From contig OZ240248.1 in the NCBI GenBank assembly GCA_965198235.1, positions 1,600,001 to 1,664,000 on the forward strand: 64,000 bases of DNA, given 5' to 3'. Shown in pieces: positions 18,189-54,966 of the stretch. This DNA comes from Candidatus Poribacteria bacterium (GTDB lineage Bacteria > Poribacteria > WGA-4E > WGA-3G). A program made the position numbers and the translations under genes. The notes below the pieces were generated by a model that saw nothing but the letters and a program-made list of their open reading frames with translations, was not told the origin of the DNA and ran no database searches. Numbering within the stretch: position 1 is the stretch's first letter; each line of letters starts with the position of its first letter.

Positions 18189-18330
18189 CAGGGCTATTTA
18201 GTTTTCCATTTTTTAGAACATTTTCGGGGTCCCGGACCCGGTAGGAGCGGTTTGTAACCGCTCCGGGCATTGAAAAAGAGGTGTTCAAACGCCAAACAAT
18301 CCGATAATTTCTTAAAACTAAATGGCTCTG
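18189..18330. mobile_element. MITE-like element with ~17-bp imperfect terminal inverted repeats enclosing a GTAG REP hairpin
   Basis: CAGGGCTATTTAGTTTT ... AAAACTAAATGGCTCTG; related TIRs at 19415-19575. Confidence 0.6.
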
Positions 18331-19593: not shown

Positions 19594-19622
19594 TTGACAC
19601 AAATTTGTGGGCGTGTTAATAT
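19594..19622 (+). promoter_or_regulatory. Sigma70-type promoter
   Basis: TTGACA-17 bp-TAATAT with extended TGn; GGAGG before ATG 19676. Confidence 0.6.
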
Positions 19623-24958: not shown

Positions 24959-25081
24959 TGCATCTGTCTATTGCCTATTGCAACTGAGATGGGCGGGATT
25001 CATTCTCGCCCATTTTTCGTTGCAAATAGGCAGAAATAGACGTATAATTGATTTAAAGTCATCGCTGGCGAGGAAGAGACA

Positions 25082-36218: not shown

Positions 36219-37409
36219 TTAAAGGGTTTCAGACATCGATTTTTCAACGATGTTAACGGCTTCCTCAACATGACCGGCATTGATATTGAGCGGTGGTAAG
36301 AACCGGAGGATATAATCGTTGGTGCAGATGGTGACCAGCCCGTTCTCAATGCATTTCGCAGCGAGCGGTTTGGCATCGACTTCCATGACTAAGCCGCGGA
36401 GCAAGCCTTTCCCACGTACCTCTTTGATTGGATACTTGTCCTTTAGTTCCATCAGTCCACCTGTGAGATAATTCCCCATTTTAACGGCGTTCACGGCGAG
36501 GTTTTCTTCCAGAATGGTTCTGACGGTTGTGGATGCCGCCGCGGTGACTAACGGATTACCTCCGAATGTCGCCGCGTGGGTGCCTGGCACAAAACTCTCT
36601 GCTATGTGTCGTTTCGCCAGCATCGCACCGATTGGCGCACCACTACCGAGAGCCTTCGCCATCGTAATCACATCTGGCACAACGCCGTAGCTTTGATACC
36701 CGAAAAAGGTGCCTAATCTCCCCATCGCGGTCTGGACTTCGTCGAAGATGAGTAGCAGGTTATGTTTGTCACACAGTTCTCGTAACCCTTGGAGATACCC
36801 ATCACTGGGGATATTAACGCCACCTTCGGACTGAATCGGCTCGACTAATATGGCGCACGTCTTTGAATTGATAGCGACTTCGGTTGCTTCGAGATCATCA
36901 AACGGCACGTATGTGAAGCCTTCGAGCATCGGCTCAAACCCGACGTGATATTTCGTTTGTGCCGTAGCGGTGATAGTCGCCATCGTCCGTCCATGGAACG
37001 AATTCTCCATCGTGATGATTTCGTAGGTGTCTGTTCTATCATTGTCCTTGGCGTATTTCCGCGCCAACTTAATCGCCGCTTCATTTGCTTCAGCACCGCT
37101 ATTGCAGAAGAAGCACTGATCCATATCGGAGTTGTCGATAAGCAGTTTCGCGAGTTCTGCCTGCGGTTGGATATAGTAAAGATTGGATGTGTGCAGCAGC
37201 TTGCCTGCCTGTTCACGGATAGCGGCGACAACCTTCGGGTGGCAGTGCCCTAAGCCGTTGACAGCGAGTCCACCGAGGAAGTCGAGGTATTTCTTGCCAT
37301 CGGCATCCCAGAGGTAGGGACCCTCGCCCTTGACGAATGCGAGACTTCTGTCACCGTAAGTATTGATGATATATTCCGTCGCCATCTCTTTGATTTCAGC
37401 TGTTGTCAT
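36219..37409 (-). CDS. argD: Acetylornithine aminotransferase
   Basis: 'FFCNSGAEANEAAIKLAR', 'SFHGRT', 'FDEVQT', 'MAKALG', 'TFGGNPL'. Confidence 0.9.
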   Translation of the reverse strand: MTTAEIKEMATEYIINTYGDRSLAFVKGEGPYLWDADGKKYLDFLGGLAVNGLGHCHPKVVAAIREQAGKLLHTSNLYYIQPQAELAKLLIDNSDMDQCFFCNSGAEANEAAIKLARKYAKDNDRTDTYEIITMENSFHGRTMATITATAQTKYHVGFEPMLEGFTYVPFDDLEATEVAINSKTCAILVEPIQSEGGVNIPSDGYLQGLRELCDKHNLLLIFDEVQTAMGRLGTFFGYQSYGVVPDVITMAKALGSGAPIGAMLAKRHIAESFVPGTHAATFGGNPLVTAAASTTVRTILEENLAVNAVKMGNYLTGGLMELKDKYPIKEVRGKGLLRGLVMEVDAKPLAAKCIENGLVTICTNDYILRFLPPLNINAGHVEEAVNIVEKSMSETL

Positions 37410-37513
37410 TTTCCTAACTATGGCCTCCTGTTCTGCTCTCCATTACATTACGAGCAGGTTTCTGGTTAAGTCGTGATTCTTCTGGGGTTTGTGCGTTTCT
37501 GGACCTTTAAAAC

Positions 37514-37631
37514 AGGACTTACGCAAATTGCGCGAAAAGCAATATATTTCCCCAAAAGAGTCGTTGTTTCAGTGATTTAACCCCCTCAATCTCCCTTATC
37601 AGGGAACTTTAAGAGGAGGTGCGTAAGTCCT
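37514..37631. mobile_element. MITE-like element with 12-bp perfect TIRs AGGACTTACGCA/TGCGTAAGTCCT
   Basis: Inverted repeats at 37514-37525 and 37620-37631, next to a family-A arm (37410-37475) that ends at the argD ATG. Confidence 0.65.
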
Positions 37632-39821: not shown

Positions 39822-39916
39822 AGTTTTGTCCTTAGAGGAATGGTTATCAGTTGTCAGTTAAAGAAGGTTCTTGACGTATCAGGGATCTCTTTTAACTGAT
39901 AACTGATAACTAACAG

Positions 39917-41074
39917 CTATTTGTATAAGCGTTCGTCTTCTAATGATAGCCAGGTGCCGTAATCGCGAGGCATATCCCTTATTTCACCCAAGCCGGCTTC
40001 AGCACGCCACCGCAGCAACGGATGCTCTCGGTTTTTCTGGGGCAACTCCACACGTGTGCCGTAGACAGCGGACTCAAAGATTGCCATTAGAATTTCAATG
40101 ACATGGCGACCCTCTTCGCCGTTAGATTCGTGTTCACGGTCCTCGTCTAATGCGTTTACATACTCTTCAACGAAGCAGTAATCGTCGGCATTTGCGCCTT
40201 TATCTGCGTCAAAATGCTCTGGATAGATAGACGCGAGTGCTTCCCACTGGTCGTGTGTGCCATCAGGGACGAAATGTGGTGTAGGTAGCCACCACGAACC
40301 TTTCAATTCCGACCAGAAGAGCCTGCCTTCAGTGCCGTAGAGTTCCATGACGTACGCATCGGTATCCACCTTCGGGAATCGATGCTGAATGAGAGTACCG
40401 GTGACGTTTCCGTCGAATTGGAGCGTCGCTGTGGTATATTCACCTGCGACTGTGCCCATGCCAGCCGGGGAGGGGAGCACATCGTCGTGTCCGATGGCGC
40501 GTCCGCCTGTCGTCGCTTGTGTCATGACGCTCCGGCAGTGCCCACCGAAACGCAGCATGTTGTTAATGACATGCGTTCCGATGTTCATTAACCCATAACC
40601 GGCGTAGTAGCCTTTTCCACTGGCGTAGATGTAACGCAGGTCGCCTATTTTTCCTTCGTTTAGGGCTTTGGCGACTGCCTGCATCGACGGACTCGTACGT
40701 CGTTGATGATGTACGGCGACGCGAGCGTTTTTCTCTTTCGCCTTTGCCAGCACCTCATCCGCTTGAGTGAGGTTAATACAGAGCGGTTTCTCTACCTCAA
40801 TGTTCACGCTGTGTTCAAGGACGCGCATGCAAAGCGGATAGTGTGCCTCTGTTGCTGTGGGAATTGCGACAATGTCGGGAGATGTCTGTTGGATCATCTC
40901 GTCTAAATCGGTGAAATGTGCGGAGACGTTCACGATATCGCCGAGGGTCTCTAACCGCTCTTGGACGAGGTCGCAAAGTGCTACGATCTCGGTGCGCGGA
41001 TGTGCGTGATATGCTTTTGCTGCCGAGGTGCCGCGACTCCGGCACCCCAATATAGCGACGCGGTAAGTTTTCAT
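39917..41074 (-). CDS. Gfo/Idh/MocA oxidoreductase
   Basis: 'AILGCRSRG', 'VEKPL', 'VHHQRR', 'LMNIGTH'; start moved to MKTYRV. Confidence 0.88.
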   Translation of the reverse strand: MKTYRVAILGCRSRGTSAAKAYHAHPRTEIVALCDLVQERLETLGDIVNVSAHFTDLDEMIQQTSPDIVAIPTATEAHYPLCMRVLEHSVNIEVEKPLCINLTQADEVLAKAKEKNARVAVHHQRRTSPSMQAVAKALNEGKIGDLRYIYASGKGYYAGYGLMNIGTHVINNMLRFGGHCRSVMTQATTGGRAIGHDDVLPSPAGMGTVAGEYTTATLQFDGNVTGTLIQHRFPKVDTDAYVMELYGTEGRLFWSELKGSWWLPTPHFVPDGTHDQWEALASIYPEHFDADKGANADDYCFVEEYVNALDEDREHESNGEEGRHVIEILMAIFESAVYGTRVELPQKNREHPLLRWRAEAGLGEIRDMPRDYGTWLSLEDERLYK

Positions 41075-41334: not shown

Positions 41335-42417
41335 CTATTCTACTGTGGCATTCCACTGCTTGGCACGTTTCATGAATACCGACGGATCCAGCAACCATTC
41401 GCCATAACCGATGTTCTTGTTATTTGTCAGATAGTCAAGTTTTTCATCAATGCAGGCGGCGAGATCGGCATCTTCGAGGGCGAGCGTAAATCCGCCATAC
41501 TCTATCTGCTCATCAAAGGCAGTGACGACAAGCTCACCGTGTGAGACGTGCGCGGCATCCTGACTACCAATCTCACCCCGCGCAATCGCATCAATACGAC
41601 CCGCGACGAGTGCCTCAAGCAACTCCGACTCCCCCAAGACATCACCGAGATAGATTATCTGTGGCAGGGTTTCCGTAGGTGGATAGAGATGCTGCCTACC
41701 CACGAGGTTCGGAGAGGCACCGGCGGCTGTAATCGTGTAAGCCGCTGTGCCATCGGCAACTACAGTCTTATCACGAGTCTCAACCCGGGTGCCCGATAGA
41801 AGGACCCCGTCAGCATCAACGAACCCGGTAAGTTGAAGTAAACGCGCCTCGCCCGTCGTGCTGGGAAGGGCACCAACGCGAACTTCACTGTTAAGGGCTG
41901 CATGCGTGGAGAGACGTTCCGCGTCTTCAGCACGAACCAAAAGCGTTTGCCGAAACCGGATATGTCCGGATGTAAAGGTGACGACGGGCATCCCTGTTGC
42001 ATCTTGCCTCCGGGATTCCAGAATAGTAATGCCGCCTCCGATAATATCATACGTGGGTTCAGCGGACTTTAGCCAGATACTATCCCATTCGGCGATAGCC
42101 GTTCGAGAGAACGTCAAACCCGCCCCTTCCATCGCTTCAAGTGCAGTCAATAGATCCGCTTCGTAACCGAGATGTGTATTGAACGCAGCCGAGACAGGAT
42201 CTTTGTTAGCACTGTAACTAATGGGTGCGAAATGGGCATAAAAGCCGACCTTCAACACGCGGGTTCCGTCCGTACAAGTACCCGTGGCTGTTCCCTTTTG
42301 TTGCGTAACGATCTGTCGCGCCTTCTCGCAACCTGAAAGCATCGCTGTTGTGAATATGAGTAAGATAAAAAGTCGAAAACGCATTGAAATCCTCCTACTT
42401 TGACTTGAGTTTGACAT
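41335..42417 (-). CDS. Periplasmic-binding-protein type 2 (SBP_bac_3-like) lipoprotein
   Basis: Lipobox 'MLSGC'; 'LKVGF...FAPISY', 'GYEADLL', 'GGITI', 'AGRIDAI'. Confidence 0.7.
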   Translation of the reverse strand: MSNSSQSRRISMRFRLFILLIFTTAMLSGCEKARQIVTQQKGTATGTCTDGTRVLKVGFYAHFAPISYSANKDPVSAAFNTHLGYEADLLTALEAMEGAGLTFSRTAIAEWDSIWLKSAEPTYDIIGGGITILESRRQDATGMPVVTFTSGHIRFRQTLLVRAEDAERLSTHAALNSEVRVGALPSTTGEARLLQLTGFVDADGVLLSGTRVETRDKTVVADGTAAYTITAAGASPNLVGRQHLYPPTETLPQIIYLGDVLGESELLEALVAGRIDAIARGEIGSQDAAHVSHGELVVTAFDEQIEYGGFTLALEDADLAACIDEKLDYLTNNKNIGYGEWLLDPSVFMKRAKQWNATVE

Positions 42418-42420
42418 ACG

Positions 42421-43135
42421 CGAATTTCAGAGTATTCAGAGTAAATATGAAAAATTGATATGACAGGAAGAGGCTATGAACCTACGTTTTGACTGGACTC
42501 TTCGAGTCTTTGCAAAAGGTCTTTCAAAAGTTTACTCTGAAATTTTATGTGTGAGAGCTTGTTTAAAAATGTTACACTGGTGTTACATTGGATGTATAAT
42601 GGCTATCGGTAGAGAACGCAATAACTGTAAGGGTTCATAGGCTCCCTGTTTCTAATTTCCCGCTGTGAAAAAAATAATTTGGTGGAAAGTGTAACATTTT
42701 TATTCTACGTGAACATGAATCGTTTGAACAGTTTCGCAAATCTGACGATACTTTCACAGTTTTCATAGCAAAGCCAAGAAATCAATAGGTGTCGTGAATG
42801 GCGATAACCCCTGACTCCTATTGGGTTTTAGGCGGTTTTCATCAAAGGGGGCTATGAAAGTTGCTATGAAAATGTCAGACCGGTCAATATGCGTCATAAA
42901 ACTTCCTCGGTGCTGGACGGAAAATGTTCCGAAGGTCTCCTGACTTTCACGGAGGCTTCACGGAGGTTTTTGCGGACGTAGACGTGACGTGGGTTGCCAA
43001 GACGCAATATGCGGTCTCTCCGTGAAAAAACGAATGTGAAAATTAAATTAACGCATCGTATCAGTGTTTTTAGGACAGGGAACTGTGAATGCCAAAAACT
43101 TTACACACCCTGTTTTTGGGTTTAGGGTTGGGGTA
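42421..43135. other. ~720-bp non-coding region of four arm-core-arm repeat modules with cross-module complementarity (structured ncRNA or recombination-site array)
   Basis: TTCAGAGTA x2 + rc; TGTTACA x2 + rc; rc + GCTATGAAA x2; TTCACGGAG x2 + rc; no ORF of 60 aa or more. Confidence 0.55.
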
Positions 43136-43139
43136 TTGG

Positions 43140-43517
43140 TTAGGATTTGTCGGGATTCATTTTCAGGTTGGTTTTCGGTTTCCATTCGCGGATAAGTTCA
43201 GTTTCTAATAACACCGTTTCTTCCGCGTCCTCTGTGAATTCTACCGAAAATTGGACAATTGACCTGAACATTCGGAGTTGTGAATGGAGTCCGTCATTCT
43301 GTGCGTTTGAGTGGTGCTGCAACAACCGTCTTCGCACACAGGTTGTGGATTCCCCAACATAGAGACAGTCGTTCCGCCCCTCGGTGCCGGTTTTCCGCCA
43401 CAGGACATATACACCACTCCGTCCAGTCGGCAGTTGCAGGATCTCCTCGCGCGTGAAGGGACGGAGGTTACGTTTGAGTTGATACTGTAAGACGTAGGGG
43501 GTAACACTGTCAGACAT
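43140..43517 (-). CDS. Stand-alone GIY-YIG nuclease
   Basis: 'GVYVLW', 'LYVGES', 'RRRLLQH', 'LETELI...P..N'. Confidence 0.85.
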   Translation of the reverse strand: MSDSVTPYVLQYQLKRNLRPFTREEILQLPTGRSGVYVLWRKTGTEGRNDCLYVGESTTCVRRRLLQHHSNAQNDGLHSQLRMFRSIVQFSVEFTEDAEETVLLETELIREWKPKTNLKMNPDKS

Positions 43518-43536
43518 AGGATACTTTCCACTGTCA

Positions 43537-43575
43537 GAATCAGGATTTACAGGATTGACGGATTTTCAGGATTAT
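43537..43575 (+). repeat. 9-bp-period degenerate microrepeat (CAGGATTTA-like)
   Basis: atcaggatttacaggattgacggattttcaggatt. Confidence 0.55.
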
Positions 43576-43580
43576 TACTT

Positions 43581-46379
43581 TTAAATATCAGCTGTCATCT
43601 GTTCTGGTGCCCGCATTGACTGTGAGATATACTGCCACTGAATCGCGAGGTTATTATAGTGTGCCGCGTTTTCTGCCTCGCCGCGGCGTTCATAGTAGGT
43701 ATACAATATCCCTGCCAAACGCTTTGCGGATTCGTAATCGCGCATCGCACGCGCAATGGTGGTACATCCCGAAATGCCGCCGCTCCTTTCTTCACCAGAT
43801 AGATGCCACACCATTCGCAGGCACCCCTCCCATGCTGTCATCTCTTCGCTGTTTGCATATGCCTCATATTCCTCACTCTGCAACAGTCGGACTCTACCCC
43901 GTGCGGCGATGAGGACCTTGTCGTGCATAGCGGCGACATCTACATCTTGTGCTGTTGCTAATACCTGAGCGTCTCCGAAATTACCTTCCATGTAACCGTG
44001 TTGCTTCAGCCATGTCAAGCAGAACTGACTCTCTGGATCTAATTCACCGGTCTCTTTTTCATGGTAGGCGGTGATCTCGTTGTTGATGTGCATGAGTGCC
44101 TCGCGTATCGGCACAATCTCACCGCTGATTCGTGTTACCTTACTATAGCGAGAATAGACCTCCATCCCCGGTCCGATGGCGGCTTGTGCTAAATCAACAG
44201 GTCTGATATTGGTGATGCGTGTGAGTCTGTCAAGCGCGGGTGGCATTTCTTTTTTCAGTTCTTGTAGGAACTCATTACGGGTTATGGCAGGCACATCCTC
44301 AGAACGCGGGCGGCAGACTAAAAGAATAGAAGATGCAAGTGCATTGGATCCAATTCCTCGATGTCTATTCACTAATTCAGTTCGCATGGGCCAGGTACCT
44401 ACTATCTGAAAACCGGCGTTCACGACTGCCGTTAGCATCGTCTCCCAACCGGTAGAGGTTTTCTTTCCATCCTGTTCCTTTTGCTGTTTATAGGCATAGA
44501 AAATAGAGGTAGGGAACCTGTCAGAACAGTGTTGTCGAATCCGCAGTAGTGTCTTGCCAAGTAATTCCTCAAAATGTTGTGCGGGATCTTCAAACCGGGG
44601 ACTGGCGGTTATTTCCTCATCCTTCGGAGTCATCATACTCCCAAATAGTTCTGGGTGGGTGTCTCGTAACAAAGGTCTCAACCAAACATAGAAGAAGTCG
44701 GAGAGATCCGCGTAGCCGATGTTATCGTAGTAGGGTGGATCAGTGACAATGACAGGTGCATCCATAGCATGAATAGTGGTGGCGGCATCTGCCTGATATG
44801 CTGTACCATCGTTTACTTCAGTGGGAAAACGCTCAACGACCTTGGCAACCCATTCGCCTTGGGATGTCCAGTTCCTTGTCGAACTAGAAAAAAGATTCGC
44901 TTCGGCAAAATCCCACACCATTGGAAGAGCAGGCAAGGAAAAAGCGTGGCAAATTTTGTGCCAAGTACTTGACCATGTCGCGGATGTACAACCGCTGTCA
45001 GCAATTCTGCCAATAACAAAGGTGAGATAGGTGGAAACAGCGGAAGCGTAGACGCTATCGCCTCCATCGAGCATTATAGCGTGATGAACATCTTTCAGCA
45101 AATCACTGAATGTAGTTAGAGTTGTGAGCTGCCTTTCTGTATACAGTTGATGCCAGTGGGAGAATCCATAATTTTGCAGACTGATTCCCAAAGCTTTTAC
45201 CGGTATTTTTCCTCTAGGCCTCCATTTAGGTTCGGCAAGTAGGGAGGCCTCAACGTGTTCATCAGTAGGGGAGATATACAAACGTCTTTGGTGGCCCTCA
45301 GCGATTATCGCTGTCATCATTTTTCCCATCTTTCCCACTTTGGCCTGTTCGCGCACATAAGACAATTTGACCGAACTCCCACAAGCAAAACAATAGGCAC
45401 CGCTGCGCCCTACGGTACCTCGCTTTGGGACCCCGTCTATATGTTTTTGCACTGTCCAGGAGATGGTGTTCGTTTCCCTGTCAACGACTGGTTTTGTCCA
45501 GTATTTGTTTCTTTCTTTAGTGGACAGTTGGAAGGTTTTCATCAGCGGCATCTGTAGTCCACAGGCCGGGTTGGAACATGGCACTGTGCGTGCCCAGAGC
45601 CACGCGATTACGGTGGCAGAAGTGCCGTCTGGTAGCTTTACTTTTGGGTAGAGGTGCCCAATTCGCTTATGTGCTTCCTCGCGCATCCATGCGCCATAGT
45701 AGCGGATGTCATTTGCTAAACCAGCAGTCCCTTTCCACGGCACGCGCGTTCGCCTTCGACCCGTGCCAGGGAACATACCCAACGGATCGGCATCGGGATT
45801 GACGGGGTTCTGATTGTGGAACTTCGGGGGCAGTTCAATCATCGCTTTGGTGAGTAGGACGGGCAGCGGATTCAGATCGGAGGCGCGGGCGCGCAATCCT
45901 AAGCGTTGTGCCTCAAGTGGAATGGAACCGCCCCCGCAAAACGGGTCGTAGACAGCGGGGCAGTGGTCGCGGAGGTATTGTAGAACCGCCTCTGGATCGT
46001 TCTGGAATCTCGTGCGAAAGGTAGTGATATCTTCCCCGTTGTTGCGGGCGACGGAGAACGCAATTTCATAACGTGCCTCCGCTAAGAGATTTTCATCGTT
46101 GCTGTCTTTCCAGATCACGAGTCGTTTGATGAGGTTGTGGAGACGGTTGTGTTCGGCGTTCTGTTCGGGTTCGGTTGGGAATTCGTCTTTGCATTCGGAG
46201 GGATCGTCCACCATGCTGGCGAAAATGACAGCGCGACATGCGGCCAAAGGACGGCGTGCCCAGTACAAGTGAAGTGTGGACGGATGGCCATGCCTGATGG
46301 ACTTTTCGCGTGTTGATTCACGGTTAATGGCTTGGAGGGGTATGTTGACCTCAATGAGTTTTTTTCGGTAATTGGACAT
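43581..46379 (-). CDS. DUF1156 adenine-specific DNA methyltransferase with Zn ribbon
   Basis: 'KKLIEV..PL', 'HLYWARRPLAACRA', motif I 'DPFCGGGSIP', Zn ribbon 'CSNPAC...CFAC', motif IV 'TDPPYYD'. Confidence 0.92.
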   Translation of the reverse strand: MSNYRKKLIEVNIPLQAINRESTREKSIRHGHPSTLHLYWARRPLAACRAVIFASMVDDPSECKDEFPTEPEQNAEHNRLHNLIKRLVIWKDSNDENLLAEARYEIAFSVARNNGEDITTFRTRFQNDPEAVLQYLRDHCPAVYDPFCGGGSIPLEAQRLGLRARASDLNPLPVLLTKAMIELPPKFHNQNPVNPDADPLGMFPGTGRRRTRVPWKGTAGLANDIRYYGAWMREEAHKRIGHLYPKVKLPDGTSATVIAWLWARTVPCSNPACGLQMPLMKTFQLSTKERNKYWTKPVVDRETNTISWTVQKHIDGVPKRGTVGRSGAYCFACGSSVKLSYVREQAKVGKMGKMMTAIIAEGHQRRLYISPTDEHVEASLLAEPKWRPRGKIPVKALGISLQNYGFSHWHQLYTERQLTTLTTFSDLLKDVHHAIMLDGGDSVYASAVSTYLTFVIGRIADSGCTSATWSSTWHKICHAFSLPALPMVWDFAEANLFSSSTRNWTSQGEWVAKVVERFPTEVNDGTAYQADAATTIHAMDAPVIVTDPPYYDNIGYADLSDFFYVWLRPLLRDTHPELFGSMMTPKDEEITASPRFEDPAQHFEELLGKTLLRIRQHCSDRFPTSIFYAYKQQKEQDGKKTSTGWETMLTAVVNAGFQIVGTWPMRTELVNRHRGIGSNALASSILLVCRPRSEDVPAITRNEFLQELKKEMPPALDRLTRITNIRPVDLAQAAIGPGMEVYSRYSKVTRISGEIVPIREALMHINNEITAYHEKETGELDPESQFCLTWLKQHGYMEGNFGDAQVLATAQDVDVAAMHDKVLIAARGRVRLLQSEEYEAYANSEEMTAWEGCLRMVWHLSGEERSGGISGCTTIARAMRDYESAKRLAGILYTYYERRGEAENAAHYNNLAIQWQYISQSMRAPEQMTADI

Positions 46380-46387
46380 AATATCGA

Positions 46388-46612
46388 TTAGTCAATCAGT
46401 TTTTGTGCGAAGGCTTGGATGCTACGTGCGTGAATTGACTGGATATAAAGATCCTTAAGTCGTTCCAGATCGTCTATATTTTCAAGTGCAGGCCTTAAGG
46501 CATCCACAAGTTCTGTCGAGAACTTCGTTTTAAGAACCACCGAGATGTGGCTGATAGTCGTTTCTTTGGTAATTCTCTCGTGTAGATGTTGGTAAGCCTT
46601 AGATTCTTGCAT
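46388..46612 (-). CDS. Stand-alone paralog of the Rpn C-terminal domain (RpnS-like putative antitoxin)
   Basis: MQESKAYQ...NIDDLERLK...QKLID parallels the last 70 aa of the upstream Rpn; own GAGG RBS. Confidence 0.75.
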   Translation of the reverse strand: MQESKAYQHLHERITKETTISHISVVLKTKFSTELVDALRPALENIDDLERLKDLYIQSIHARSIQAFAQKLID

Positions 46613-46630
46613 GTGTCCCTCGGGTATGCG

Positions 46631-46843
46631 TCAGTCAATCAGTTTTTGTGTGAAGGTTTCGATATTCGGCACCCGAGGTGCTGCGAGAAGGAGTTCCTTC
46701 AGCCGTTCCAAATCATCAATGTTTTGGAGCATAGGCGTTAAGGCACGCACCGCCTCCGTGTGAAACTGCTGTTCAAGCAGCGCGATGATGTGCTCGATAG
46801 TATTCTCTCTCAGCATGAGTTGGTAACCTTTAGATTCTCGCAT
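46631..46843 (-). CDS. Putative internally initiated RpnS (70 aa) inside the Rpn gene
   Basis: In-frame ATG at 46843 preceded by GGAGG (gcataccGGAGGaactcATG); same boundary as the duplicated ORF. Confidence 0.65.
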   Translation of the reverse strand: MRESKGYQLMLRENTIEHIIALLEQQFHTEAVRALTPMLQNIDDLERLKELLLAAPRVPNIETFTQKLID

Positions 46844-47482
46844 GAGTTCCTCCGGTATGCGTCTTTTGAAAAGTTCGGGGTCATATACGATACTCCCAAA
46901 AATATAGAGGGCGTAAAGTAAATTTGCTTGTGTTTCTTGATCTACAGACGTTGCGCGCGTCGCATCAATACACGTTTGTACCCAACGATCTGAGTCTATG
47001 CCTGTAGGCGGTTTCATGAGCGGTGTGAAGGGTAGTATGCCTGGGGTCTGCGTCTCTAAAACCGCTTGTCCCTCTATCTCAATGAGCCGGATGACTTTAT
47101 AGTGGAGCGTGTATGTGTAACCGTTCCACTGATATTCATATCGTCCGGTGTCATTTCTTCCAGCATCTGGATGGAAATAGATGACGTTGGAGTAGACGGG
47201 CAACTGGTGTTCACCGATGAGGTGTCCGTGATAGGCTGCGTTTCGTGCCCACATCGGGCTGCGCGTGCTACTGCGGAGCTGGAATTCAACGTGCAAGATC
47301 GCTTCACCACCGGCGACGCGGATCCGTTTTGTGGTATCGGTGCGTTGTGCGATAATGCGCTGTTGTTCTGTATCCAGGTTTTCAAGGACTTCCACATCCG
47401 CCACGCCGAGTACGAATCGTGAGAGGTCGGTGGCATGATCCGTGAAGAGGTCCTTGGTCATGTTGTCGTAGTTTTGTGCCAT
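46631..47482 (-). CDS. Rpn/YhgA-like PD-(D/E)XK nuclease (putative transposase family)
   Basis: 'YDNMTKDLF', 'RTD', 'ILHVEFQ', 'PVYSNVIY', 'ILPFTPLM'; start moved to MAQNYD. Confidence 0.82.
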   Translation of the reverse strand: MAQNYDNMTKDLFTDHATDLSRFVLGVADVEVLENLDTEQQRIIAQRTDTTKRIRVAGGEAILHVEFQLRSSTRSPMWARNAAYHGHLIGEHQLPVYSNVIYFHPDAGRNDTGRYEYQWNGYTYTLHYKVIRLIEIEGQAVLETQTPGILPFTPLMKPPTGIDSDRWVQTCIDATRATSVDQETQANLLYALYIFGSIVYDPELFKRRIPEELMRESKGYQLMLRENTIEHIIALLEQQFHTEAVRALTPMLQNIDDLERLKELLLAAPRVPNIETFTQKLID

Positions 47483-47488
47483 GGGTAT

Positions 47489-47518
47489 AGTGTAACCCAA
47501 AAAGTGAAGAAATGTCAA
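47489..47518 (-). promoter_or_regulatory. Sigma70-type promoter giving a probably leaderless Rpn mRNA
   Basis: TTGACA-18 bp-TACACT, ATG 6 nt downstream, no SD. Confidence 0.55.
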
Positions 47519-47572
47519 GCAGATTTGAAGTGGCACAAACTAACAGTTTATGCTACAAAAACTACAGATTTT

Positions 47573-50500
47573 TTAGTCGCTCTTGAATTCGGCGTTGAGG
47601 TGTTTGCTGTTTTGCTTGACAGCACGGGTGGTGTTTTCGGAAAAGCCGTCTGATTTGTTGGCAGTAATGGTAATTTCAATTTTCACATTTCCGCCATCTG
47701 CTTGTAGGGTGCGGGCAATCTCGTCTTGGATCATGTCAATCTCATCACCGAAAGGCAGTTCTAACTGCAAGGCTTTGGTAACAACGACGTGCGTAGGTCC
47801 CTTTGTTGGCGGGGGTTCGACCACAACGCCGGTTGGGTCGTCTCCCGTTTGCTTTTCTGTGTCTGGTGCTGATTCGGGAGCGTCCGATTTCTTCTGTTTT
47901 TCTTTTTCCTCCTTGAGGAGTTTTGCCATCTCAGGATTTATGAGGACAGCCGCGCTACCTTCAACCACTCGAAGCCCGCCGATCTGTTCTTCAAAACGGA
48001 AGTTGCGATAGTCGTCCCCCTCATAAGCACTGGCGTATCCGAAAGAGCCTGCCTGTACACCGTCTCTAAGGCACGTCGCCAAGACGTTTCGGTCCCTCAG
48101 TCGTGGCATGTAGACGTTTTGTGCCATGAGTTCCGAGAGCGTATCTAAGCCAATGTGCTCTTGATAGGTGTCGCTGCTCCAGATGTATTGCTGCAATTTT
48201 CCGGCAAAGATTTCAGGATCTATTTTTGTAACAATTGCGTCATCGTCAATGAATTTATCACGGAGCCGCCGTATAATTCTGCCATCTTCGGGTTTTGTGT
48301 CAGCGATAGAGAAGTCGTAGGCACTGTTTTGGGGATCTGATTGCGAAGGCGTGAGTGCCCATCGGTATGCCTTGAAGAGTGCAGTCGTTACGGCATCTTC
48401 AGCGGATTCAAGGTTTTCCGTCGTCTGATCTAACCTCGCGCCTTCGAGGTTGGTGAGCGCGCCGTGTAGGACATTTCCGTTCATGATGGAATCCCAAGAG
48501 AGGTAGTTTTTGACGAGATTTTTGAGGTCACGGATATCGTCTCGCCGTGCTGCGATGAAGAGGAGGGTGTTCCTGAAGGTGCGGGGTCTTTCATCGTCTG
48601 TGCTATATGTAAGCATTTTAAGCGCGGTTTCGCGTGCGATATCACTCTCTTTTTCACGGCTTGGCAGAGAGGACTGTGGATGAAGAATGATGTACTGAAT
48701 AGTTTGGGAATCCTGAATGGGATCTGGAGTCGTGGGACAGACCTTCACGTTTGAGGTGCTTTGAACTGTTCTTTCCAAGCGTGAAACGATTTCAGCGTAG
48801 ATATCTTCCTCGGTATATTCGGCTGCGCGGTCTGTAGCGACTTTATTGAGGTTTTCTTGGGTATGGAAGTAGTATCTATCGTCAAGGTTATAGAGGAAGT
48901 AGAGGTTACCGGTCATTCTACTGAGTGCGTCATTATACACAGAAACACCCTGTCCGGGTTCAACGACACCGAGGTGGATTTGCTGTTGAGATATACCTTT
49001 GACCGCACGTCCTGTTGCACTACCGAGGAATATCGTGCGAGCGATACGCCGCGCCGCGCTGCCCACCTCAATGAAGCTTTGAGAGTTTCGATCAATCTGG
49101 TCAGTGCGGGAACCGTGGCTGTCTACCTCTTGGACGACGGGGGCCCAATTTCCACCGGATCTTGCAAGCAGTCTGGTAAATTCATCAGCGAGTGCGGGAT
49201 CGTCAAGTGTGAGGTTCGCTGGCGTTATCAGCAGAGAGGGATCCTGTTCTTGAAACAGACGGGAAATGCAGGTCGCCATTATTCGGAGAACACTGCGGGT
49301 CCGCTGAAATCCGGGGATAACCGACCAATCCTCAAAGAGCCGATCAAATATCTCTGGGTGGATCGGATAGCAATCTTTCATCCGTTTCAGGTAGTCTTGA
49401 TTGCTAATGTTACTCGGATATTCGCTTCGGGAGTTCTGATACATCTTTCGGAACGCTTCACAGGTCAGGTCGCGTTCCGTTTCGTCAATTATGGGACCGA
49501 ACAATCGCCTGCGGACAACTTCATAAGCGTTATCCACTTCTAAGGGAATAGAAACGGCATCAACCCTTTCGAGGATAGATTCGAGGGTATCAAGGGCAGT
49601 CATTCCACCTTCACCACCTGCTTCGACCTGTGCTTCGGGAAGTGTTGCAACGAGTGTAACGTTCTGAGATCTGTTTACGGATTCTGTGAGGGTTTGAAAG
49701 AAGGTGTAGATACTCTCCTGTGTGACACCTTGGACATTACGGACATAAGCGACGAGTTCATCTATTAAGATGACAGAAGGGCCGACGTGTTCAAAGAGTG
49801 CGTCCAATTGCTTTCCGCCGGGGGCGATGCCTTCACGTGCGGCATCCCGTATGATGTTATAGGCATCTTGTCCGCCGAGTTGATTCGCCATCATCCCCCA
49901 GAGTGTGTTGAGCGGGTCGCCTTGTTTTGTTTCATCTGCATCAGTCGTAGAGAGGTAGGTGCCGACCAGAACAGCGACGTTGGCATTAAGGGGAGTGTTG
50001 GGGTCCCACGCCGCGTCTTGCAGGATGTCCGCTATTTCTTCTCGGAGCCGCTGGTATTCACCCTCTGCTGGCAGTTCTTTTAGCGCGTGAATTCCGGTAA
50101 CAAGATGATAGAGGGCAATGAGACTGTGGGTTTTCCCGCCCCCGAAACCTGTCTTGAGTTGGATGACTGGATCGCTATCTTTGCCGCCAAGTCTTTTGAG
50201 GGTATTCACCAACAATTGGCGAAGCCCAGGGGTGATGTATGTCTGGTTAAAAAAGATGTCGGTTTCGCCGTATTCTGGTGTTTTCGCGTTTCCTTCAAAA
50301 ACTTCTTGAAGGTCGGCGGCGAATTCCGATTTTCGGAAGGAGCCTTCAATGACATCGGTATTGGGGCGTATGACATCACGCCATGACTTGAGGTCAGCTG
50401 CCTTTCTACGCGGTAGTTTTGGTTTCGTGTCTACAGTTGGTGCCGCGCGGGTGAGTAATTTGTCGCGGATGACTTCAACTGCTCGCTTCTGTTCAGGCGC

Positions 50501-50854
50501 GTTGATTTGCCCAAGTATATCGCCAATTTCATGAAGCCGCGAAAGCGCGTAACTGGGATCGATGTCTCCTGTTTCCGGATGGGAAACGTTATTTCGGGCT
50601 TCGGTGATGAGACCTACAGCACTCCGAATATCGCGATCTGGATCGAAGCAGTGTTTAAAAACATCGTGCCAATACTCTCTGAAAAGGTATGGAAAATTGC
50701 CAATATCTATATCTGCTTCGTTTTGAAAGCGGTCTTCCGGTGCTAAGCCTTGCACGGTTTTCAGGTTTCTGAGAATAAACGGACGCATGGCATCGCGGTA
50801 GATATTGAGTGCTTGGTAGAGTGCATCTTGGGTTGGACGTTTGGGCGAATTCAC
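47573..50854 (-). CDS. DUF499 AAA+ ATPase with N-terminal Swt1-like HEPN domain
   Basis: HEPN Rx4H 'RNNVSH'; 'EFAADL', Walker A 'GFGGGKTH', Walker B 'ILIDE', 'YPIHPE', 'FQRTRSVLR'. Confidence 0.9.
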   Translation of the reverse strand: MNSPKRPTQDALYQALNIYRDAMRPFILRNLKTVQGLAPEDRFQNEADIDIGNFPYLFREYWHDVFKHCFDPDRDIRSAVGLITEARNNVSHPETGDIDPSYALSRLHEIGDILGQINAPEQKRAVEVIRDKLLTRAAPTVDTKPKLPRRKAADLKSWRDVIRPNTDVIEGSFRKSEFAADLQEVFEGNAKTPEYGETDIFFNQTYITPGLRQLLVNTLKRLGGKDSDPVIQLKTGFGGGKTHSLIALYHLVTGIHALKELPAEGEYQRLREEIADILQDAAWDPNTPLNANVAVLVGTYLSTTDADETKQGDPLNTLWGMMANQLGGQDAYNIIRDAAREGIAPGGKQLDALFEHVGPSVILIDELVAYVRNVQGVTQESIYTFFQTLTESVNRSQNVTLVATLPEAQVEAGGEGGMTALDTLESILERVDAVSIPLEVDNAYEVVRRRLFGPIIDETERDLTCEAFRKMYQNSRSEYPSNISNQDYLKRMKDCYPIHPEIFDRLFEDWSVIPGFQRTRSVLRIMATCISRLFQEQDPSLLITPANLTLDDPALADEFTRLLARSGGNWAPVVQEVDSHGSRTDQIDRNSQSFIEVGSAARRIARTIFLGSATGRAVKGISQQQIHLGVVEPGQGVSVYNDALSRMTGNLYFLYNLDDRYYFHTQENLNKVATDRAAEYTEEDIYAEIVSRLERTVQSTSNVKVCPTTPDPIQDSQTIQYIILHPQSSLPSREKESDIARETALKMLTYSTDDERPRTFRNTLLFIAARRDDIRDLKNLVKNYLSWDSIMNGNVLHGALTNLEGARLDQTTENLESAEDAVTTALFKAYRWALTPSQSDPQNSAYDFSIADTKPEDGRIIRRLRDKFIDDDAIVTKIDPEIFAGKLQQYIWSSDTYQEHIGLDTLSELMAQNVYMPRLRDRNVLATCLRDGVQAGSFGYASAYEGDDYRNFRFEEQIGGLRVVEGSAAVLINPEMAKLLKEEKEKQKKSDAPESAPDTEKQTGDDPTGVVVEPPPTKGPTHVVVTKALQLELPFGDEIDMIQDEIARTLQADGGNVKIEITITANKSDGFSENTTRAVKQNSKHLNAEFKSD

Positions 50855-50881
50855 GTGTTTAAAGCTCCATTTATTCCGCGG

Positions 50882-51379
50882 TTATCTAAAAATCCAATTT
50901 TCTCTTTTTACAATACCAGATATCCTAACACATTCAATATTAGAAACTTTACATACATCAGGAATTCTTGGGTGTTGTAGATTTCCGGTCGATTTTTCTT
51001 CTGTTACTACAACGCTGTTTCGGAATTTCATTGCTAAAGCTACCACCCACGGATCTGCTCCCGATGTGCCTTTTTTAATATTTAGCATCCCTGGATACGT
51101 TGATAACATGTTACGAACGGCTCTTTGATCTGAATCATCAATTTTCAATTCAAGATACGGTTTCAAACCTTTTTCACGACACCACTTATCTAATACTTCA
51201 TCTTGCATAGCTTCCGCAAAAACAAACTCAGACATCTTGAGCCGATCATCTCTTATTAGTTTCTCTAATTCCTGCCACAAGGCCGGAAAATTTTCCATTG
51301 GATATAGGAAGCGATAAGCATCAATTAGCGAGCTTGTATCCAGACTATAAACTATCTGATTTTGATTAAATAAATTCAT
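50882..51379 (-). CDS. DUF4411 PIN-like protein (putative toxin)
   Basis: 'YSLDTSSLI', 'FPALWQEL', 'ADPWVVALA', 'VVTEE', 'IPDVC'. Confidence 0.85.
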   Translation of the reverse strand: MNLFNQNQIVYSLDTSSLIDAYRFLYPMENFPALWQELEKLIRDDRLKMSEFVFAEAMQDEVLDKWCREKGLKPYLELKIDDSDQRAVRNMLSTYPGMLNIKKGTSGADPWVVALAMKFRNSVVVTEEKSTGNLQHPRIPDVCKVSNIECVRISGIVKRENWIFR

Positions 51380-52542
51380 GCAAAGATGGTACTCTCAATT
51401 TTAGAGAGATATTTTGTATCACAATTAGAAAAGGCGGAGGCTAACTCAGAGATTGTGATTTTATCCTCATAATAAGCCGTAAAAGCGGTCCTCGCGAAAT
51501 ACTCACCAGAGACATTAAGAAGCCGATTGTGGTAAAGTGGTGCTCCACCTGGTTGTTGTGGCGTGTCTTTATACTTCTTCTTCTGATTATTTCTATAAGT
51601 TTGGTATTTTCGTTGTGAGATTTTTTTGAGTATCAATAGCCGCCGCAGAATAACTTCAGGACTCACATGAAAGTGCTTGGAGATTTTAGATAAATTTTCT
51701 TCAGGGGTCTGCAGCTTTACAATTTCTAGTAATTCATCTTCGGGAACTAAGACTTCACCGGCTACATGATTGCAAAATGCTTCAATTGGATTCAGATCCG
51801 AGTGATCTATTTCTCTAAATCCTGTATTCTGAATGACACTTTCTCCAAGTGCAATATGAACCAATTCGTGGATGAGGGTAAAGATGCGACCGTAAGGGCT
51901 GTCCTTTGAATTTATTACAATTACCGGAAATGGTCTTTGTGCAATGCAAAACCCGCGTACTGTTCCTAGATTAACGGACAGGTGTGTGTTCGTCTGGCAG
52001 ACAAGAATACCTTTCGCTTCAACAATCCGTTTCCAAAATTTCAAAGCGGCGTGTGGGGTATTCGCTTCCTGTAGTTGCTCTCTGTTAACCTCAAGAAATT
52101 CTATTATTTTTTTCGCTGCTCGCTTCCGACTTGCGCGTCTGTCGAAATTCAGGTCAACCTCAGGCGGCGATTCCTCCAACAATTCGTATAATTCGATGAG
52201 CGTCTCTCGCCTTTTAAATGCTTCAACGATGTTGGCATTTAATCTATAGATCTGTTCCTCATCAGTTGCAGCTCGTTTAGGTAAGACACGATAGTCTGCC
52301 GGTCGCTGAAAACTAGTGGGGGGTACTGGCAAATAGAAAATAGAAATGTGGATTCTATAGAGTTTCGCAATCTTCTTTAATTGGGAGATAGTGGGTTGCT
52401 CTATCCCGTTTTCCCACGCCTCAAGACGTGCCGGGTCTACCTTTAATTTTTTTGCCGCGTAGTCGATCTCTAAGTCGATGTATTCTTCACGCGCCCACTT
52501 GAGAACTTCCGGCGTAATGAGTGCTTTTACAGATTTAGCCAT
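51376..52542 (-). CDS. XRE-HTH plus ImmA/IrrE (Peptidase_M78) metallopeptidase
   Basis: 'LKWARE...WENG..QPT..QLKKIA'; 'FTLIHELVH' HExxH; 'EAFCNHVAGEVLVP'; ATGA overlap with DUF4411. Confidence 0.9.
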   Translation of the reverse strand: MAKSVKALITPEVLKWAREEYIDLEIDYAAKKLKVDPARLEAWENGIEQPTISQLKKIAKLYRIHISIFYLPVPPTSFQRPADYRVLPKRAATDEEQIYRLNANIVEAFKRRETLIELYELLEESPPEVDLNFDRRASRKRAAKKIIEFLEVNREQLQEANTPHAALKFWKRIVEAKGILVCQTNTHLSVNLGTVRGFCIAQRPFPVIVINSKDSPYGRIFTLIHELVHIALGESVIQNTGFREIDHSDLNPIEAFCNHVAGEVLVPEDELLEIVKLQTPEENLSKISKHFHVSPEVILRRLLILKKISQRKYQTYRNNQKKKYKDTPQQPGGAPLYHNRLLNVSGEYFARTAFTAYYEDKITISELASAFSNCDTKYLSKIESTIFA

Positions 52543-52697
52543 GGTTTGTATCCCCACGAACCGGTTGGTCAGTTCGTCGTAAAATCATCAATTAGAACGT
52601 TTTCAGATTGCGCTGTGTTAAACCCCAAGGGATCGCAAGCAAATAAAATGTGATAGTGGCGAAATTACTTAACATATCCTACTCAAAAGTGAATTAA

Positions 52698-52726: not shown

Positions 52727-53097
52727 AAGGTGGTTTTTGACAATTTGGCACTAAAGCGAGGCTGGGGCGAGACCGGCAAGGCAAACGCCGGATCGAACCA
52801 ATCTGCGTTGCCGTTATCACCTCGGTGTGTGAGCTGTTGCGGGACACCACCGTCCAAAGCGACTTTGAAGAGTTGGCCGACTTCACGAACCCGCTTGTCG
52901 TAAATGAGTTCATTCCCGTGGTGCTGGGTTAAGTTTATCTGATCAGATCCATCCGGGTTCATGATATAAATTTCAGAATTGCCATCACGCCTTGATGTAA
53001 ATACGATTTTGGCAGTTCCCGGGGCTTTTGCAAGAGCGGAAACCGAGAGAGGAGCAAAGATGAGGAAGGTGCTAAGCACATAACATAAGAGTTTCAT
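52723..53097 (-). pseudogene. TolB/PD40-like secreted protein, internally deleted and C-terminally truncated
   Basis: 'KIVFTSRRDGNSEIYIMNPDGS', 'QQLT...ADWFDPA.ALPVSPQP'; only ~2 blades and no WG tail. Confidence 0.65.
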
Positions 53098-53193
53098 GAT
53101 GCTTTCCTCCATAGCGTTTTCTGTAGGGAGCAAGGTGTTTTGCTTGGGGTTTTTGATAGGTGTTTCCCTGCGGATTTCCCCCAAGAAACGCGC

Positions 53194-54966
53194 TTAGGGG
53201 CCGATTTCCTCAATGCGAATCTGTTGGTTGGGTTTGACATTCTTGCGTGTGCTGAGGGCACCGCTGGGCCACGTTACCTCAATTGTTTCAATGATAGTAT
53301 CGTCGTTTATACCGAAAATGGCGGCGAGTTCGCTCTGTGAGCAGTAACTGGAACCGCTCTTGACTGTGTGGGTCTGCGTCACCGACGCGGAGGTTATACG
53401 GATCTGTGCGCCGATACCGTCTCGGTTGCTTGTTTGTCCGACGAGTTGGATCTTAATCCAGGCGTTGCGGTTTCCGCCATCGTTTCGGAAGAGGTGTGCG
53501 GGTCCGTTGGAGGTCGTAACGAGCAGATCCCAGTCGCCGTCATTGTCGATATCGCCATAGGCACCACCTCTCCCAACCATCGGCTTTGCCAAGTCCGCGC
53601 CAACTTTATGAAGCACATCGGTGAATTTGCCTTGGGAATCGTTGTGAAATAGGTGTGGGGGTTGAGCATAGGTAACGTGGGTCTGGATGGCGTTGATGTC
53701 GTTTTCGACATGTCCGTTGGCGGTGAAGATGTCGAGGTTGCCGTCGAGATCGAAGTCGAAAAAGAAACATGCGAAGGTGAGCGTCAGTAAGGTCGCGTTT
53801 CCGATGTGTGCGACAGGTGCATCGTCGATGAAAAAGTCGCCTTCGTTGTGGTATAGGTTGAGCATCTCGTTGGAGAAGTTGCCGATGACGAGGCTCTCCT
53901 TGCCGATGCGATCGTAGTCTGCGGCATCAATACCCATTGCGCCGGTTGCGATGCCGCTTTCGTTATACGCGATCCCCGCGAGCATTCCGGTCTCGATAAA
54001 TGTGCCGTCGCCGTTGTTTTGGTAGAGTTTATTGGGTTGTGTGTCGTTCGCCTCGAAGATGTCCGGTAAGCCATCGGCATTGTAATCGAAGATGCAAACA
54101 CCGAGTGATTTGCTCGTGTTGTCCTCAATCCGTGCGATCCGGGAGACATCGGCAAATGTGCCGTCGCCGCGATTTCTGAAGAGTTTGCTGGACTGCCCTG
54201 TATAGGATTCAGGGGTGCAGTAGGATTTATTGATGCCGTCGAGGGTGCAGAATAGGTCGTTCTCTCTGCTCCATTCGACATAGTTCGCGACGTAGAGATC
54301 GAGGTGTCCGTCCCTGTTGTAATCGAACCATGCGCAGCTTGTGCCGAAGCCGGGGTTGTGAATACCGGCGGTTTCCGTGATGTCAACAAAAGTGCCATCA
54401 CCTTTGTTTTGGAAGAGTCGGTCGGTTTCGAGGGTGCTAATATAGATATCCGAATCACCATCGTTATCGTAATCGGCGACAGCGACACCCATACCGTAAA
54501 GCGGTGTGGTGAGACCTGCGGTTTCCGTGACATCGGTGAAGGTGCCGTCCCGGTCGTTGCGGTAGAGTGCCATTGTTTGCCGTTTCTGGGTCAGCTCGCC
54601 TTCCCAATCCTTTCCGTTGACGAGTAGGATATCCTGCCAACCGTCCGTGTCATAGTCGATGAAGGCGCATCCTGAGCCCATGGTTTCAGGCAGGTATTTC
54701 TTACCGAAGGCACCCGTGTTATGGACGAAGTCGATGCCTGCTTCGTGTGTGATGTCGGTGAATTGTGGCAAGGGTTGTGCAACGGCATTGAGGGAGATGA
54801 GCAGACAGCAGCAGAATATTATATTGGCTATCAGCAGTCGGAAACCTTCGGCTTTCAGCGTGCGGTAGTTACGTATCTTGCTGAAGTCTGAAGCCTGAAG
54901 CCCGATGGATATTTCTACTGATGGCTGATTGCCGATGGCTGATTGCCGTTTTATACGGAGATCCAC
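53194..54966 (-). CDS. CRTAC1/ASPIC-UnbV family FG-GAP repeat protein
   Basis: 'ETMGSG', repeated 'DYDNDGD.D', C-terminal 'SNRDGIGA...GSSYCSQS...V.WPSG'; GGAGG before GTG 54966. Confidence 0.88.

Follow-up and report, generated by a model that had tools for sequence, protein, structure and literature searches.

Four small modules stacked between a Poribacteria defence-island hot spot and a conserved operon

What occupies the non-coding DNA between a defence island and the conserved operon that borders it? We addressed this question in Candidatus Poribacteria, an uncultivated sponge symbiont, using a stretch of 64,000 nt (contig OZ240248.1, positions 1,600,001-1,664,000; hereafter the window) in which a gene-free spacer of 755 bp (42385..43139, GC content ~0.41) lies between the gene of an SBP-like lipoprotein (41335..42384), the first gene of a conserved operon, and a gene for a 125-aa GIY-YIG domain protein (43140..43517; PF01541, E = 5e-7), the last gene of the island. 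A first-pass annotation had described four arm-core-arm modules in this spacer, and had read them either as an array of recombination or protein-binding sites or as a large pseudoknotted non-coding RNA linked to the nuclease. We find that, rather than a single element, the spacer contains four small cis-elements stacked at the junction of a fast-turning defence-island hot spot and the conserved SBP operon. As to their nature, our leading but tentative suggestion is that the modules might be DNA sites at which proteins recognise specific sequences, probably sets of operators and looping sites, and that island turnover has stacked them.

All four modules, each consisting of a tandemly repeated word and its distant reverse complement, were found at the coordinates originally given, together with every repeat named for them. 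M1 (42423..42544) carries TTCAGAGTA at 42426-42434 and 42435-42443 and the reverse complement at 42533-42541, within a 12-nt perfect inverted repeat (42423-42434 / 42533-42544) whose arms are 98 nt apart. M2 (42564..42702) is built on TGTTACA-based 11-mers at 42570 and 42581 with their reverse complement at 42690; its perfect inverted repeat is 15 nt long (42564-42578 / 42688-42702) and encloses 109 nt. M3 (42760..42872) has the flipped arrangement, with TTTTCATAGCAA at 42760, GCTATGAAA at 42851 and TTGCTATGAAAA at 42861. Here a 12-nt perfect inverted repeat (42760-42771 / 42861-42872) leaves 89 nt between its arms, the second copy being the one at 42851. M4 (42945..43027) has TTCACGGAG at 42946 and 42957 and the reverse complement at 43018-43026; the perfect inverted repeat measures 10 nt (inverted copy 43018-43027), with 63 nt between the arms.

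Chance does not account for this array. A module finder was set to accept words from 7 nt upwards that recur in tandem at a period of 7-14 and have their reverse complement at a distance of 20-160 nt; it returned seven modules in the entire window, four of them in the spacer; with 9-nt words, all three modules of the window fell in the spacer. The shuffling control proposed with the annotation was carried out on the 722-nt stretch that holds the modules: 5000 dinucleotide-preserving shuffles gave a mean of 0.012 modules and none with four (4942 with no module, 57 with one and 1 with two). Shuffling the whole window 30 times produced 0-2 modules each time (mean 0.57). Perfect inverted repeats of at least 10 nt with loops of 20-200 nt number 17 in the window, five of which lie in the spacer. 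The shuffles exclude a chance origin of the array, and the observation stands.

Three of the four arm words share the pattern TTCA-N-R-G (TTCAGAG, TTCATAG, TTCACGG), extra single copies of the form TTCACAG occur, and TGAAA is present 14 times in the spacer against 2.8 expected from the window; the shared pattern and the TGAAA excess are what related binding proteins would give. GCTATGA occurs four times where 0.01 is expected, once inside the M1 core. Less of what had been described for the interiors held up. The 'inverted homologous cores' of M1 and M2 come down to a 13-nt inverted repeat of 92% identity, which does contain the M3 arm word GCTATGAA; by our own arithmetic about 0.2 such matches are expected by chance. 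Among the additional helices, the hairpin inside M3 (42773-42793 / 42813-42833) is present, with 21-nt arms of 76% complementarity. The proposed pairing of 42878-42895 with 43001-43016 is partial, most of it being a direct repeat, CAATATGCG, while the helix placed at 43071-43118 shrinks to 6 bp around a 26-nt loop, in a region (43060-43140) that folds no better than its shuffles (z = -0.8 and -0.5).

Do the four modules belong together? A search with the SBP protein gave nine further Candidatus Poribacteria loci at 88-91% amino-acid identity, making ten genomes with the window; two more distant loci (L009 and L011) were excluded from every count. Comparison by blastn revealed a mosaic pattern of modules among these genomes. 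M1 is found in seven of the ten (the window, L001, L002, L005, L006, L008 and L010), and its tandem words end ~40 nt before the SBP ATG in every carrier. Three of the carriers (L001, L002 and L008) are free of any island and have the order UvrD-like helicase, 233-aa open reading frame (ORF), GFO oxidoreductase, FG-GAP protein, PD40 beta-propeller, spacer, SBP; there M1 makes up nearly the entire spacer of 154-173 bp. Judged by this distribution, M1 is the native upstream region of the SBP operon, part of the core operon rather than of the island. The remaining genomes carry other cargo at the same site. As the cargo differs from genome to genome, the spacer is the junction of a hot spot and a conserved operon; the synteny among relatives bears out its earlier placement at an island edge, between the variable Hma-type island and the SBP operon. 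Its non-coding character was borne out as well, for in L001 the 54-codon frame at 42476 meets a stop after 6 codons, and L006 has a frameshift in a 17-codon frame between M2 and M3; frames of 40-54 codons were rejected as coding candidates, not being kept in relatives.

M4, which occurs in five of the ten genomes (the window, L003, L004, L005 and L010), always lies just past the 3' end of the GIY-YIG gene. The end beside M4 belongs to an intact gene in the window and L003; in the other three carriers it is a remnant, of 35 nt (L005), 111 nt (L010) or ~110-140 nt (L004). L007 has an intact gene and no M4. The link of the array to the GIY-YIG nuclease as such was therefore not upheld: M4 alone is tied to it, and then to the 3' end of the gene, whether or not a functional gene is present. 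Differing cargo seems to share this 3' end as its right flank. The 'tail' of the spacer, from M4 to the GIY-YIG stop (43028..43139), is conserved in L004 and L005 and shows large gaps against L003 and L010.

L003 and L004 have M4 and lack M1, and in L003 the M4 tandem words sit exactly at the position of the M1 tandem words, with the junction at a shared TTCA. This replacement would be accounted for by a microhomology deletion between two paralogues lying in tandem. The other two modules are sporadic. M2 is confined to the window and L006, where its second copy, right arm and TATAAT have changed. A complete M3 exists in the window only; L006 retains the left half, homology ending at 42805 in the middle of the core. 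At the same place L007 has a different module, TTATAGTAAA / TTTACTATAA with 118 nt between, whose arms differ from those of M1 (TTCAGAGTAAA / TTTACTCTGAA) by two matched changes.

The independent inheritance of the modules means that they do not make up a single RNA. An Rfam scan of 41500-44000 gave no match in the spacer at E <= 10; the two matches listed fall within the GIY-YIG gene and stay below threshold, scoring 19.6 bits where 55 are required and 15.3 where 45 are, and over the whole window only a tRNA-Gln reached its gathering score. Covariation was assessed with RNAalifold on samples that are small and shallow and thus of low power: in M1 (seven genomes) none of the 31 predicted pairs had changes on both sides, and in M4 (five genomes) 4 of 26 had, one of them the flanking column 5/87 and none in the arm words. 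With the spacer empty of Rfam matches, no compensatory changes in the arms and the modules inherited separately, the large pseudoknotted RNA suggested earlier finds no support.

Which parts of a module are kept? As a neutral yardstick we used the four-fold sites of the SBP gene, at which the window and its relatives are 0.79-0.84 identical. The arms of M1 have a pairwise identity of 0.98 among seven genomes and its core 0.82, with 25 of 27 arm columns and 51 of 89 core columns invariant (Fisher p = 4.6e-4). The difference in M4 is steeper, with pairwise identities among five genomes of 0.985 (arms) and 0.58 (core) and invariant columns numbering 26 of 27 and 13 of 54 (Fisher p = 1.9e-10). The M4 core falls to an identity of 0.30-0.33 between the window and L010; an inversion of the core between genomes was considered and rejected, identity to the reverse complement being 0.09-0.29. 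Nevertheless the M4 alignment has no gap over 90 columns in five genomes, whereas its flanks need large gaps, and one block inside the core, GTGGGTT (42989..42995, + strand; columns 49-55), is invariant in all five at a fixed distance to both arms, the only such block. Invariant arms, an invariant heptamer and a gap-free alignment imply that words, heptamer and spacing are constrained and that the intervening sequence is not. As read from these alignments, the arm words of M1 and M4 are under purifying selection.

This bears directly on the possibility that the modules are a neutral by-product, quasi-palindromes and slipped duplications left by template switching in AT-rich non-coding DNA and without function. 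The spacer is indeed AT-rich, M2 and M3 appear to be decaying in L006, and another inverted repeat of the operon (37514/37620, described below) is imperfect in L001, L002 and L005. However, conservation of the M1 and M4 words far exceeds that of their own cores and of four-fold sites, four modules stand where 0.012 are expected, and the geometry of M4 is fixed. A neutral origin is already disfavoured for M1 and M4, and for the array in general we regard it as highly improbable.

We infer that the words are read by a protein on DNA that regulates transcription. A module would consist of two tandem copies of a ~9-nt word at one end and a perfect inverted copy at the other, the latter often with a second, degenerate copy beside it, and of a sequence-free spacer between the ends; a multimeric protein would bridge the 60-110 bp between the words, most likely as an operator-and-looping set. 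M1 would then be the native control region of the SBP operon, and M4 a second element of the kind, one that stays with the GIY-YIG 3' end and can stand in for M1 before the SBP gene. M2 and M3, sporadic and partly decaying, would probably be relics of the control regions of lost cargo. The annotation's alternative of 'recombination or protein-binding sites' stays viable in this form, because the arms behave as selected recognition sequences; its version with integrase attachment (att) sites is unsupported, as detailed below.

Looping operator sets are known from the gal, lac and ara systems, and tandem direct-repeat sites are typical of winged-helix response regulators (OmpR/PhoB, WalR and PhoP boxes). 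The modules resemble these in that short words are conserved, more so than the surrounding neutral DNA represented by the four-fold sites, while the DNA between them drifts; in a tandem period of 9-12 bp with a further site 60-110 bp away; and in their position in front of an operon. The words of M2, in the form TGTTAC-N5-TGTTAC, stand beside a TATAAT. They overlap a sigma-70-like match (GTTACA-18 nt-TATAAT, 10/12; 42571..42600, + strand), which is a consensus match only and is not conserved in L006. The L007 module ends 4 nt ahead of an 11/12 match, TTGACA-17-TAGAAT. Boxes of this type are used by the genome, with clear examples at 19594-19622 and 25022-25050.

Elsewhere in the window we found inverted pairs with a common arm word (AAAACTAAAKG / ATTTAGTTT) and unrelated cores, at 18196/18314 and 19415/19561, with arms 108-131 nt apart, in the intergenic regions on both sides of one LamG-domain gene. 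The word occurs eight times in the window at no more than 1 mismatch, against 2.6 expected, and also in L010 (9328-9338) and L003 (41-51). By their arrangement these pairs resemble regulon sites, and the word may be a regulon motif or a dispersed repeat.

Another reading is that each module acts as RNA, a domain closed by a long-range stem of 10-15 bp in a leader, intercistronic or antisense transcript, which may stabilise or insulate the mRNA and for which the tandem copy might provide a second register. The neighbouring genes are all co-directional, so that read-through transcripts are plausible, and the spacer has no canonical terminator, whereas GC-rich hairpins of the terminator type are visible elsewhere in the window. 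M1, M3 and M2 on the minus strand fold better than shuffles (z = -2.5 to -4.25), although much of this effect comes from the arms by which the modules were defined; M4 and 43060-43140 fold little better than shuffles (z = -1.8 to -0.5). Complementarity is kept with different sequences across modules and through the two matched changes that separate the L007 variant from M1. Four of six arm substitutions in orthologues are G-U-tolerated on the + strand, in a sample that is small and not significant, and another spacer of the same operon, between the GFO and PhyH genes, has a hairpin with 32-nt arms made of tandem heptads that differ between species. Against a role as RNA, the Rfam and covariation results given above offer it nothing, and core structure is not conserved. 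An RNA loop should moreover vary freely in length, and that of M4 never changes; and both tandem copies are conserved, which pairing alone does not explain because one copy pairs at a time. We consider this explanation unlikely.

Protein-recognition sites are to us the most economical reading, preferred over pairing on three points: both tandem copies are conserved; M4 combines constant spacing with free sequence, as a protein-DNA architecture would; and the ATTTAGTTT pairs resemble a regulon. A considerable list of observations nonetheless weighs against them. Four or five different words at one locus would require as many binding proteins, and Pfam scans of the window and of the relatives' islands gave no regulator gene nearby. 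Neither M1 nor M4 contains a sigma-70-like promoter at the scan threshold, and in L003 a 9/12 promoter match lies upstream of M4, which would place M4 inside the transcript. M2, M3 and, in the window, M4 have no gene directly downstream, so that, compared with known operator sets, four unrelated word sets share one spacer and three of them face no gene. The tandem periods vary (9, 11, 12 and 11 nt for M1 to M4, the M1 copies abutting at 9 bp), and the arm-to-arm distances have no common helical phase. Both arms changed together between module types and in the L007 variant, as a pairing constraint predicts. Lastly, the M4 core is more diverged in L010 and L003 than neutral sites are, and simple orthology does not account for this divergence. 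A separate idea, that the M4 words act as CsrA or anti-Shine-Dalgarno sites (CCUCC, minus strand), was abandoned because it does not extend to M1-M3. In the literature on inverted repeats in Poribacteria, titles and the openings of abstracts offered nothing relevant.

Could the modules instead be DNA sites of a mobile element? A recombinase or transposase encoded at another locus might use them for synapsis or recognition, or they might be decayed foldback elements akin to miniature inverted-repeat transposable elements (MITEs); they would mediate island turnover or have been left by it. Several of the results fit: modules come and go among genomes whose neighbouring protein is 88-91% identical, they lie exactly at the variable/conserved junction, M3 is cut mid-core in L006, and L003 has M4 in place of M1 with the junction at a shared TTCA. 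M4, with its conserved words, central heptamer and spacers of fixed length and free sequence, would suit a recombination site, and the layout of two direct copies and one inverted copy is also that of the yeast FLP recombination target (FRT) and of the lambda arm sites. Other spacers of the operon likewise gain and lose blocks of 100-200 bp (the alignment of the SBP-GFO spacer, with anchors misplaced for L005 and possibly others, was used for length differences only), and in L008 one operon spacer holds an insertion sequence (IS) with a DDE transposase.

Other results speak against it. Pfam searches covering window ORFs of 110 aa or more, together with selected ORFs from the islands of seven relatives, gave no integrase, invertase or transposase, and no target-site duplication was seen at any module. 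No further M1 or M4 arrangement exists in ~250 kb of Poribacteria DNA (the 64-kb window and the nine loci, ~180 kb). Perfect inverted repeats of at least 9 nt containing TTCA occur elsewhere seven times, all as single pairs without a tandem copy, and perfect 9-10-nt inverted repeats are common by chance in DNA of this extent (221 in all). The far border of the island (~52.7 kb) has no shared repeat, the spacer sharing 30 11-mers with the rest of the window where 23 are expected. Orientation is constant in all copies (M1 7/7, M4 5/5, M2 2/2). The GIY-YIG remnants beside M4 are unequal in length, from which we conclude that the breakpoints are not site-specific, and arms 60-110 bp apart are too distant for a simple crossover core. 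On balance a mobile-element origin seems rather unlikely.

A more specific proposal along these lines sees the modules as exchangeable cis-elements of a new kind, which would serve a recombinase encoded elsewhere as synapsis sites and mediate the swapping of cargo at Poribacteria defence-island hot spots; in order, such an element may comprise two tandem words, a spacer fixed in length but free in sequence, the central heptamer, another spacer and the inverted word. This would explain the pile-up at the island/core junction, the interchange of M1 and M4 before one gene and the M3 broken mid-core, but we judge it quite improbable.

The modules were also compared with particular families of mobile sites. 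Like lambda attP arm sites and FRT, the modules combine two direct copies with one inverted copy at an island border, and M4 has its invariant central GTGGGTT between fixed-length spacers; unlike them, they come with no integrase, no inverted core-type pair around a short overlap of 6-8 bp and no attL/attR pair across the island, and their arms are 60-110 bp apart as against 8 bp in FRT. The integrase att sites proposed in the first-pass annotation thus lack both a recombinase, in the window and the scanned islands of relatives, and a matching repeat at the other border. Integron attC sites have terminal boxes RYYYAAC ... GTTRRRY, in that order, and an integron integrase. This candidate was dismissed by eye, with no attC model: the M2 arms GTTACA...TGTAAC have the reverse order and fail the R/Y pattern, the other arms lack the boxes and no integrase is present. 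A dif site was likewise rejected by eye on comparison with the consensus.

All four modules have perfect terminal inverted repeats of 10-15 nt, as MITEs and foldback elements do. They also recall mosaics of repetitive extragenic palindromes and bacterial interspersed mosaic elements (REP/BIME) in being intergenic, palindromic and module-like, variably present in relatives and placed between co-directional genes. They differ from these and from MITEs in forming no multi-copy family in ~250 kb and in having no target duplication that we could see; each module has its own arms, with short words around long, non-conserved interiors. Many-copy MITEs, an explanation named at the outset, are accordingly unsupported within these ~250 kb, in which no extra copy turned up and the module ends show no duplications. 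Invertons share with the modules inverted repeats of 10-15 bp around ~60-110 bp, and the promoter-like match of M2 and the flipped look of M3 are reminiscent of them; yet no invertase was found near the modules, and among the genomes compared the copies of M1, M4 and M2 show no orientation difference, so that an inverton finds no support.

Accounts of defence-island hot spots usually centre on genes; in this case the non-coding junction has a modular structure of its own and is partly under selection. Should the words be operators, they would offer a first view of cis-regulation in Poribacteria, in which island turnover can stack or swap control regions before a core operon; if they are recombination sites, they would point to a mechanism of hot-spot turnover with no linked recombinase. 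Either way they advise caution, an arm-core array beside a nuclease gene being by itself neither an att array nor a non-coding RNA.

The operon downstream of the spacer runs from SBP through a GFO/IDH/MocA oxidoreductase, PhyH and an enolase-superfamily protein to an aminotransferase. The true start of the SBP gene, which like the GIY-YIG and Hma genes lies on the minus strand, is the ATG at 42384, preceded by an AGGAGG; its product begins MRFRLFILLIFTTAMLSGC and has a lipoprotein signal peptide. The island side of the spacer is occupied by Hma-type defence genes (43581..50854, PADLOC models): the HmaB methylase (43581-46379, E = 2e-280) and the HmaC ATPase (47573-50854, E = 6e-221), with two unnamed ORFs between them (74 aa at 46388-46612 and 301 aa at 46631-47536). 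This Hma-type island (43581-52557) is without a recognisable HmaA helicase; a DUF4411 gene and a gene for a helix-turn-helix-peptidase M78 protein come after HmaC (50882-52557). The far border is marked by a degraded remnant of the PD40 beta-propeller gene in three fragments (52762..53261, minus strand), with ~9.6 kb of defence genes separating it from the spacer; the same gene is whole in L001, L002 and L008, where it precedes M1. No match to the spacer was found by blastn in plasmid and phage collections.

GIY-YIG copies are ~95% identical in L003, L004 and L007. The gene comes after HmaB in three of the four genomes in which it is whole, and is one ORF away in L003. A group I intron or GIY-YIG homing unit was rejected, for no intron model matched and the 125-aa protein is a catalytic domain only. 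In L004 the last 95-140 nt of the gene are duplicated (5728-5869 and 9596-9729; ~93% identity over 92 nt), and the two copies flank a 3.7-kb insert with four unnamed genes, one of which weakly matches a pPIWI-associated nuclease.

Several further repeats came to light in the spacers of the operon and upstream of it. The IS of L008 (11052-11990, ~0.9 kb; PF13612, PF01609) lies in the SBP-GFO spacer just past the SBP stop and has ends of the TAACCCAAGTTGC type; a link of these ends to the GGGTT motifs of the module cores was dropped, as the similarity covers 7 nt only. Upstream of the SBP gene of L007 (~9610-9780, 250-420 nt before its start), a unit with TCTTGTGGGAGGGGTTTRTAACCCC occurs in four tandem copies at a period of ~40-55 nt, each copy including a small GGGGTT...AACCCC palindrome. 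The hairpin of the GFO-PhyH spacer (39839-39921 in the window; arms 81% complementary, 4-nt loop) recurs in L001-L006, L008 and L010, its arms being tandem heptads of the GTTATCA / GTTGTCA type with inverted copies; the heptad sequence varies by species (GTCGGCT in L001), and similar hairpins are found in L006 (20047), L010 (689) and L007 (9364). The spacer between the enolase-family and aminotransferase genes (37514-37631) contains, 7 nt past the enolase-family stop, a 12-nt perfect inverted repeat, AGGACTTACGCA, around a 94-nt interior; five genomes have this block, and L003, L004 and L006 lack it or have other sequence in its place; its repeat is the one that has become imperfect in L001, L002 and L005. 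Finally, a block of ~100 nt (37403-37504), which takes in the ribosome-binding region of the aminotransferase gene, has further intergenic copies in relatives, at 11121-11223 and 13429-13495 in L001 and likewise in L002, L006 and L008; the copies in L001, L002 and L008 lie within the same operon.

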